A DNA stretch of 37,841 nt, taken from a virus. Lineage: Duplodnaviria > Heunggongvirae > Uroviricota > Caudoviricetes. Location of the stretch: IMG/VR virus record IMGVR_UViG_2850808358_000012, positions 1 to 37,841 of that record; one strand, 5' to 3'. Below the pieces are notes generated by a model. The model made no database searches. It was given only the letters and a program-made list of their open reading frames with translations, and was not told the origin of the DNA. How positions within the stretch are numbered: position 1 is the first letter of the stretch; each line of letters opens with the position of its first letter. This document shows positions 1,012 through 1,079 of this stretch, piece after piece. The position numbers and the translations under genes are program-made.

Positions 1012-1079
1012 ATTCAAGATAGATATGGAAATCATTCAAGATAAGCCAGAAGCGCGCATATGGAAGTTATTCAAGATAA
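1012..1079. repeat. Three closely spaced ATTCAAGATA(A) repeats at the com/mom end; putative transposase-binding sites (R1-R3-like)
   Basis: Copies at 1012-1021, 1034-1044 and 1068-1079, in inverse orientation to three copies at the other end. Confidence 0.6.

Follow-up and report, generated by a model that had tools for sequence, protein, structure and literature searches.

The window (the whole stretch of DNA analyzed, 37,841 nucleotides) holds an apparently intact transposable E. coli prophage, and the best explanation of its structure is that it is a natural chimera, in which late genes and a B gene of the Mu type stand on a foreign module. This module, of the lineage represented by SuMu and by Klebsiella and Yersinia phages, comprises the repressor, ner, residues 1 to 670 of the transposase A, the whole att region of the repressor end, and, at the mom end, the outermost 74 bp. 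The prophage ends at 996 and 37392, with termini 5'-TA...TA-3' and a target duplication of 4 bp, and each of its ends carries three copies of a short repeat that would be read by A. Its boundaries are as follows.

996..37392, - strand: entire transposable prophage of 36,397 bp, in reverse orientation to the Mu map, with the mom end leftmost and the repressor end rightmost
992..995, no strand: left copy of the target-site duplication (TCCT, 4 bp); the empty site L007 reads GGTCCTTTTGG
37393..37396, no strand: right copy of the target-site duplication (TCCT, 4 bp), from the empty-site and junction comparison
996..1011, + strand: terminal 16 nt of the mom end, TAAAGCGCGGAAAATT, with the cleavage terminus 5'-TA; conserved in seven distinct mom ends
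37377..37392, - strand: terminal 16 nt of the repressor end, read inward TATGACTAGGTAATTT, with the terminus ...GTCATA-3'

The left host flank matches thousands of E. coli genomes, only as far as window position 996. The uninterrupted host locus reads ...GCGCGGCTGGTCCTTTTGGATGTC..., and the empty target site for the window insertion is GGCTGGTCCTTTTGGATG; in the window, the left junction reads ...GGTCCT/TAAAGCGCGGAAAATTATTCAAGATA... and the right junction ...TATCTTGAATAAATTACCTAGTCATA/TCCTTTTGGATG..., the slash marking the border between host and phage. The prophage termini are thus 996 (T) and 37392 (A), or 5'-TAAAGCGCGG...CCTAGTCATA-3'. The phage sequence kept across independent insertions extends 16 bp outside each outer copy of the repeat ATTCAAGATA, and the same outer 16 nt were found in FDAARGOS_943, VL40, 06-00048, RM9088, one Shigella genome, and five IMG/VR contigs. 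At eleven repressor-end junctions, the sequences diverge directly past ...GTCATA into eleven different flanks at different loci. Seven insertions of the ATTCAAGATA type for which both junctions could be read are bordered by 4-bp repeats (TCCT, TTTC, TGAA, TATA, CTTA, TATC, and AAAG), and the only model that fits all seven is a 4-bp direct repeat around an insert starting with T and ending with A. Two empty sites were checked, that of the window locus and the nrfA-nrfB site of RM9088; the latter, rebuilt with a single CTTA, gave a 100% match to E. coli genomes over 500 nt in one piece. All the ATTCAAGATA-type copies have the termini 5'-TA...TA-3', and the family consensus is T-R...Y-A.

The original prediction had taken the outermost repeats for the phage ends, with 5'-AT termini and, by implication, a 5-bp AAATT duplication. 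AAATT does adjoin both outer copies in the window, yet an element ending exactly at 1012 and 37376 has virtually no chance of being the correct reading: the host flank runs only to 996, AAATT is missing from the empty site, prophages at eleven loci keep the stretch of 16 nt on the outer side of each copy, and other members of the family have AATTT or AAATC at this position. AAATT is a conserved terminal sequence of the phage and therefore not a target duplication, and the empty-site comparison rules out ends at the outer repeats; the true ends lie 16 bp further out. The statement that the termini differ from TG/CA turned out to be right, TA being present at both ends. A duplication of the Mu-standard 5 bp, TCCTT, around a phage starting at 997 and having the ends 5'-AA...TA-3', is compatible with the empty site, and TCCTT does stand on both sides of the insert in the window, but only there. 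We consider this model highly unlikely and reject it, since it fits the window insertion only and none of the six others, and since, by the RM9088 empty site, exactly CTTA was duplicated and the T is part of the insert; the fifth matching base is coincidental, the first T of the phage being identical to the next host base. A 4-bp duplication around a TA...TA insert was thus retained.

Prophages of this type occur at numerous unrelated sites, each flanked by a short duplication, which is the behavior expected of a Mu-like phage. The window prophage does not have the TG...CA termini expected of transposable Mu-like phages, or the 5-bp duplication expected for a MuA orthologue. A TA-3' terminus is unusual among DDE transposases of this superfamily and counts against the explanation proposed here. 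None of these prophage ends is annotated in RefSeq. The depositors of LC727895 independently annotated, as a repeat_region, a 4-bp duplication (AGAG) around a related Mu-like insert, and this annotation is the sole prior trace of these ends; no paper on LC727895 was found in the literature. At the window locus, the insertion adjoins an Rhs-family toxin gene and falls within a DcrB-related gene, 16 bp short of its 3' end (L007), and the open reading frame at 37380-37841 (- strand) now has its last codons and stop in phage DNA.

Within these boundaries, each end carries three copies of the repeat, and these copies most likely represent the distal halves of six bipartite sites for the binding of A, listed below with their distance from the respective terminus.

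1012..1021, + strand: R1 distal half-site, ATTCAAGATA, +17 to +26
1034..1043, + strand: R2 distal half-site, ATTCAAGATA, +39 to +48, 22 bp after R1
1069..1078, + strand: R3 distal half-site, ATTCAAGATA, +74 to +83, aligned to Mu R3
37244..37253, - strand: L3 distal half-site, ATTCAAGATA, +140 to +149, invariant in five diverged repressor ends
37296..37305, - strand: L2 distal half-site, TTTCAAGATA, +88 to +97; TTCAAGATA invariant in five diverged repressor ends
37367..37376, - strand: L1 distal half-site, ATTCAAGATA, +17 to +26
37323..37366, - strand: conserved block beside L1, ACCGGGAAGAGATTAAAAAAGACGGGAATAGATTGGAATCAA, +27 to +70, kept in five diverged repressor ends

Five copies of ATTCAAGATA are exact, three of them on the + strand (1012, 1034, and 1069) and two on the - strand (37244 and 37367); the sixth, TTTCAAGATA at 37296, has one mismatch. 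The predicted arrangement was borne out: either end has three copies, which are closely packed on the mom side (+17, +39, +74) and widely spaced on the repressor side (+17, +88, +140). All six have the same orientation relative to their own terminus. In the whole window, ATTCAAGATA with at most one mismatch occurs 11 times, against an expected 1.89 +/- 1.36, and none of 100 shuffled sequences reached 11. Evidence for constraint came from five diverged repressor ends, in which L2 (TTCAAGATA, 9 of 9 columns) and L3 (ATTCAAGATA, 10 of 10 columns) are invariant, while the spacers around them have changed so far that they are no longer recognizable; conservation also extends to L1 and the terminal 45 bp. 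In other mom ends, the position of R2 is occupied by TTTCAAGATA. Relatives share the terminal layout, with T-R at positions 1-2, GG at 9-10, and the motif at +17/18 to +26, and most of them have (A)TTTGATAC(C) in place of ATTCAAGATA; the terminal 16 nt of the mom end are nearly identical in relatives with the TTTGATAC motif and are proposed to contain the proximal half of site R1. Several transposase-binding repeats at each end are expected of a Mu-like phage; the window prophage has three conserved copies per end that covary with A, and these are putative binding sites.

Several further elements were observed near the sites. The two end motifs of the family can be written in a common frame, ATT-CAA-GATA versus ATT-T-GATAC (L014, L015, and L031), with a 2-nt length change in the middle. 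By eye, 8 of 10 positions of ATTCAAGATA agree with the outer half of Mu L1 when the latter is reverse complemented (TTCAAGTGAA), which may be chance. The conserved block at +27 to +70 of the repressor end shares only short words with positions 29-73 of Mu L (AACCGGGA, 8 of 8; GGGAATAGATT, 10 of 11, E value of 0.14), the region in which the Mu pac site lies; the block may be a candidate pac, that is, a packaging signal matched to the Mu-type head genes, or a site for an architectural protein. At the mom end, a second direct repeat, ATATGGAA, occurs at 1023-1030 (between R1 and R2) and at 1058-1065 (before R3); it is invariant in six of seven distinct mom ends and may be a putative part of extended sites or a site for an accessory protein. 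A G+C-rich hairpin (CAGCGG...CCGCTG) with a T run, at 1082-1107, adjoins R3 and looks like an intrinsic terminator of mom on the - strand; a compensatory stem change, TTAACC to TTGGCC, was seen in it among mom ends.

The chimeric composition of the prophage became apparent from a comparison with Mu, D108, and SfMu, for which the following genes are relevant.

1122..1847, - strand: mom gene, Mu type
33044..33997, - strand: B, AAA+ transposition ATPase, Mu type (Pfam Phage-MuB_C and AAA_22; 75% amino acid identity to MuB by BLASTP)
34032..36137, - strand: A transposase, 701 amino acids, with three N-terminal modules, DDE core, Mu-transpos_C barrel, and Mu-type C-terminal tail
34032..34125, - strand: last ~30 codons and stop of A, Mu-type tail ERDEYLNHSLDILEQKRRKK, 19 of 20 residues identical to MuA
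35559..35735, - strand: codons 135-193 of A, covarying with the end motif; putative recognition helix-turn-helix (...RTISRDPLYQWVLKYN)
36139..36390, - strand: ner-like gene (Pfam HTH_35)
36555..37118, + strand: repressor (c-like) gene, with the open reading frame possibly starting at 36459

The gene order is c, ner, A, B, with A and B adjacent to each other and beside the repressor and ner at one end, as expected of a Mu-like phage (Pfam). From position 1070 rightward, the DNA is ~90 to 95% identical to that of Mu, D108, and SfMu (mom, the G segment, and the tail and head genes); the late region is 94 to 97% identical to the three phages, a similarity proper to the genus Muvirus, and with late genes ~95% identical to those of Mu, the proposed Mu late-gene backbone is supported. 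The B region shows ~80% DNA identity to Mu, and beyond B the similarity ends at window position 34125, which is codon 671 of A. At the nucleotide level, no similarity to Mu, D108, or SfMu was detected in A, ner, c, or the ends, and similarity to Mu was undetectable in 34126-37392 and over the outermost 74 bp on the mom side. On that side, Mu homology (90%) starts at 1070, inside R3 (TTCAAGATAAAACAG versus TTCAA-ATGAAACAG in Mu). The region of ner, operator, and repressor (36139-37118) shows 69% DNA similarity to Pseudomonas phage VW-6B (MF975721.1), whose A is 47% identical; relatives of the early module therefore exist well outside Enterobacteriaceae.

A different account of these data would be a decayed Mu prophage with mutated TG/CA ends and sites, in which the repeats and the TA ends are functionless relics. 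Its only attraction is the unusual termini, and we regard it as very improbable, as A, B, and the DDE triad are intact, the sites are invariant while the spacers have diverged, copies at different loci are 99.8% identical over the end region and each has its own 4-bp duplication, and ends of the same family occur in phage isolates (vB_YpM_5 and Tongde). The heterologous transposase/end module on a Mu backbone is a real and apparently functional feature, and the window copy itself may be active.

The transposase A is of the MuA type in its organization, yet it departs from a MuA orthologue in several respects. Its layout comprises an Iα-like winged helix (amino acids 1-75), an Iβ-like module (95-204), and an Iγ-like module (220-298), followed by an rve-type DDE core with the triad D311, D377, and E417. 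The core is only ~27% identical to that of MuA, and the Mu-identical part is confined to the last ~20 amino acids; for residues 1 to 670, no similarity to Mu A was detectable by blastn. The original prediction of a divergent N-terminal domain thus understated the difference: A is not a MuA in which this domain alone has diverged, residues 1 to 670 belonging to another lineage. The closest relatives of A are those of Yersinia phages vB_YpM_5/6 (81% identity) and of Mu-like inserts in two Stx phages (75%), followed by Tongde and Klebsiella Kp4866-3 (54 to 55%) and by VW-6B, Mannheimia 3927AP2, and SuMu (42 to 47%). In Pfam, A matched HTH_Tnp_Mu_1, rve (a weak, generic match), and Mu-transpos_C, while DDE_2 (PF02914) and HTH_Tnp_Mu_2 (Iγ) were unmatched at an E value of ≤0.01; in the same search, the MuA control scored 2e-136 and 3e-48 with the latter two. 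The family profile was nevertheless colinear with MuA over its whole length (hhalign, probability of 99.6%).

An AlphaFold model of amino acids 1-299 of A, built from a 41-sequence alignment, shows three confident modules joined by disordered linkers (mean pLDDT of 78.5). The best PDB matches of this model were the Mu transpososome chains (4FCY, probability of 0.99), MuA Iα (1TNS, TM score of 0.67, rmsd of 2.8 Å), TnsB, and MuA Iγ (2EZH, TM score of 0.68, rmsd of 2.6 Å); the fold-search E values were weak (0.015 to 3.9) owing to the small domains and the multidomain model. The hhalign alignment and the model thus agree on a predicted Iα-Iβ-Iγ architecture of the N-terminal region. All three catalytic residues (D311, D377, and E417) are invariant across the family; the two aspartates align with MuA D269 and D336, and E417 aligns with the catalytic-region motif of RSV integrase, in keeping with a DDE transposase of the retroviral-integrase superfamily, which has this triad on an RNase-H-like core. 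Nearly all database homologues of the A N terminus are annotated as "partial" and end at contig edges (P0001-P0062), as expected if draft assemblies break inside multicopy transposable prophages, and the family is therefore under-represented as complete genes; the partial proteins were used for the alignment and not for estimates of family size.

The C-terminal tail of A, ERDEYLNHSLDILEQKRRKK, is of the kind that contacts MuB and ClpX, and an interaction is accordingly predicted. In a small sample, the type of tail tracks the type of B: the Mu-type tail (EYLNHSLDILEQ.RRKK) goes with a B that is 62 to 100% identical to MuB, while the alternative tail of LC727895, FRLGMQKLFAMQEEDDPLA, goes with a B of only 47% identity. 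The Mu-type tail and B are present in some relatives. Because tail type follows B type, the location of the recombination junction inside the tail suggests that the match between A and B has been preserved.

The question of which protein reads the motif could be addressed with natural recombinants. The A protein of RM9088 differs from that of the window only in amino acids 1-50 (20% identity, within Iα), and its ends are still ATTCAAGATA; between the same two prophages, the repressor N termini and DNA-binding regions are unalignable and Ner is 39% identical, and the motif is identical. The A protein of vB_YpM_5 is 94 to 98% identical to that of the window after amino acid 200 and 38 to 62% before it, and its ends are TTTGATAC. 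Two Salmonella prophages (L028 and L031) have ner, Iα, and amino acids 187 onward in common (94 to 95% DNA identity) and differ in amino acids ~126 to 186 (a gap at the DNA level); the ends are ATTCAAGATA in one and TTTGATACC in the other. Of 21 residues fixed in the ATTCAAGATA group and missing from the other group, 20 fall in amino acids 135-193, in the Iβ-like module, and the likely recognition helix reads RTISRDPLYQWVLKYN versus R(S/A)LS.I(S/T)LKRW(I/V)A.F. In a sample of about 10 sequences with two motif classes, some related by descent, the motif thus covaries with amino acids 126-193 of A, while both motif groups share their terminal 16 nt and their Iγ-like module. What covaries with the motif is the Iβ-like segment (~126 to 193) and not domain I as a whole; Iα can be swapped with no change in the ends.

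One could also suppose that the repeats serve another regulator of the phage, the repressor c or Ner, or a host protein, given that the Mu repressor shares a DNA-binding fold with MuA Iα and that binding by A is deduced from sequence comparison. This reading is very unlikely in our judgment, because the window and RM9088 keep identical motifs with unrelated repressor DNA-binding regions, Ner of 39% identity, and Iα of 20% identity, because the Salmonella pair has different motifs with ner and Iα in common, because the motif is tracked by amino acids ~126 to 193 of A alone, and because a host factor leaves a motif switch within one host species unexplained. The natural recombinants, together with the common terminal 16 nt and Iγ-like module, disfavor the repressor, Ner, and Iα as the reader and argue for a bipartite site, of which the distal half varies and is read by the Iβ-like domain, and the proximal half is common to both groups and is read by the Iγ-like domain.

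In MuA, Iβ probably lies distal and Iγ proximal to the terminus, and it is on this structure and on the covariation that our tentative assignment of subdomains to half-sites is based. In the mechanism that we propose, A would bind the ATTCAAGATA copies physically, its Iβ-like helix-turn-helix (amino acids ~126 to 193) reading the distal halves. The A/T-rich proximal half next to each (GGWAAWTY) would be read by the conserved Iγ-like domain, and an enhancer within the operator region would be the target of Iα. Once assembled, the transposase would cleave directly behind the terminal ...TA-3', at a point 16 nt outward from the R1/L1 motif, and insert the ends into target DNA at a 4-bp stagger, and the Mu-type C-terminal tail would keep A compatible with the Mu-type B. 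The chemistry at TA is likewise part of the proposal, and cross-reaction with MuA is probably lacking. Taken as a whole, the combination of a chimeric prophage, ATTCAAGATA half-sites read by the Iβ-like module, TA cleavage with a 4-bp stagger, and a tail matched to B has, in our view, a good probability of being correct. The Iβ and Iγ subdomains of MuA jointly recognize the Mu ends, and Iα binds the enhancer (PMC3362531). The literature searched contained no binding, footprint, or transposition assays for the element or its close relatives.

The organization of the ends resembles that of Mu and D108, which also have three sites at either end; counted from the terminus, the outer site is contained in the first 27 bp or so. 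R1 and R2 are 22 bp apart in Mu as in the window prophage, and L1 is far from L2 and L3 in both; the sites start at 6, 28, and 56 (R) and 6, ~111, and 151 (L) in Mu and at +17, +39, and +74 (R) and +17, +88, and +140 (L) here. The A protein likewise has the Iα-Iβ-Iγ arrangement, DDE core, β-barrel, and B/ClpX-type tail, and B and the late genes are of the Mu type. The differences are that R3 is inverted in Mu and not in the window prophage, that Mu has TG...CA termini and a 5-bp duplication instead of TA...TA and 4 bp, and that the A core is ~27% identical, with Pfam DDE_2 and HTH_Tnp_Mu_2 failing to match. Modular exchange of Iα with cognate operators is known between Mu and D108; here it is Iβ and the end sites that have been swapped. 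The 22-bp Mu end consensus, YGNTTCAYTNNAARYRCGAAAR, recovered Mu L1 (6-27), L3 (151-172), R1 (6-27), R2 (28-49), and the inverted R3 (56-77), and its best match in the ends of the window prophage had at least 6 mismatches, which agrees with the earlier impression that the end sequence is unlike the Mu motif and is not what a MuA orthologue would be expected to have at its ends. In E24377A, a classical Mu-type prophage, the R end TGAAGCGGCG was found, and the other end was missing from the position expected for a full-length prophage.

Phages of the same lineage (Yersinia vB_YpM_5/6, Tongde, the Stx-phage inserts LC727895 and LC727881, and Kp4866-3; A 54 to 81% identical) resemble the window prophage in having similar terminal 16 nt, T-R at 1-2, GG at 9-10, and three motif copies per end. 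They differ in the motif, (A)TTTGATAC(C), and in A precisely in amino acids ~126 to 193, and some (LC, Kp4866-3, and L031) have TG at the repressor end, where the window prophage has TA at both ends. SuMu, Mannheimia 3927AP2, and VW-6B belong to the same broad A lineage, with 42 to 47% identity over >90% of the protein. Up to 2021, TG...CA termini were conserved in all Mu and B3-like phages described (PMC8705779). TA-TA ends with 6-bp duplications have been called unusual, the duplication being 5 bp for Mu and 6 bp for B3 (PMC8705779). The Leptospira prophages concerned share with ours the TA...TA termini on an otherwise Mu-like transposable prophage; they have a 6-bp duplication and a B3/Tn552-like transposase without the enhancer-binding domain, and they reside in another host phylum and show no sequence relationship to the window prophage (PMC8705779). 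With its 4-bp duplication and its Iα, the window prophage does not belong to this group. The TnsB proteins of the Tn7 family, which were among the top fold matches of A, also place tandem MuA-like DNA-binding domains on repeated end sites, and the ends of related elements have diverged enough to be orthogonal (PMC9308760); these elements differ in being cut and paste with TnsA, in having a 5-bp duplication, and in not being phages. The literature searches yielded no paper in which TA termini, a duplication of 4 bp, or these end motifs are described for Mu-like phages of enterobacteria. Papers on vB_YpM, SuMu, Mannheimia, and PluMu contain no analysis of the ends, and those on SuMu, Mannheimia 3927AP2, and VW-6B treat neither ends nor duplications.

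The search for ATTCAAGATA ends in other Mu-like prophages, suggested in the original prediction, found them at independent loci with the same terminal 16 nt. The ATTCAAGATA subtype is rare, being present in 6 of 5,426 complete E. coli genomes, in one Shigella and one E. coli among 185,579 GTDB species representatives, in five IMG/VR contigs, and in at least one Salmonella; the contig search with the A N terminus returned two loci only (Shigella and E. coli). In 06-00048 (NZ_CP015229.1; L005 and L010), the ends of the copy lie ~100 kb apart on the chromosome and share the 4-bp repeat TATA, and the same end sequences are present on a 136-kb record labeled as a plasmid (NZ_CP012497.1); the separation could reflect other elements inside the prophage or an assembly problem. 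STEC388 (NZ_CP041425.1) contains five matches to the mom-end region and two to the A region in one genome, suggesting several copies and recent transposition of this phage type. In the "circular" record of vB_YpM_5 (L014, 4560-4980), in which the ends are unannotated, the mom end is joined to the repressor end through ~90 bp resembling packaged host DNA, and the deposited genome is therefore permuted and includes nonphage sequence.

The general proposal of a different end specificity on a Mu backbone with a Mu-like layout is thus supported by the comparative evidence, and the positions of the ends, their terminal bases, and the duplication had to be revised. Mu is the reference system for DDE transposition, and TG/CA termini, a 5-bp stagger, and 22-bp sites are treated as hallmarks of Mu-like elements. 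The window prophage is phage Mu over most of its length, yet its transposase is of another lineage, its termini are TA, its stagger is 4 bp, and its end motif is different; these details would surprise a Mu specialist, and they stay inside the known logic of Mu-like transposition. They also call for caution in the use of prophage-boundary callers that assume TG/CA and 5 bp. A broader proposal, which we judge about evenly poised between true and false, is that this is a second Mu-type transposition module, with TA/CA cleavage and a 4-bp stagger, in which an Iβ cassette of ~60 residues and the six distal half-sites are exchanged together to give orthogonal pairs. If true, there would be mutually orthogonal pairs (of the ATTCAAGATA, TTTGATACC, and Mu types) on nearly identical enterobacterial phage backbones, amounting to a series of specificity swaps made by nature, from which orthogonal MuA-like tools could be drawn. 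With the natural recombinants, the determinant of specificity can be confined to some 60 residues, which provides a testable map of how MuA-like transposases read their ends, and the transposases and ends of this family are candidate orthogonal pairs for MuA-style genome engineering.
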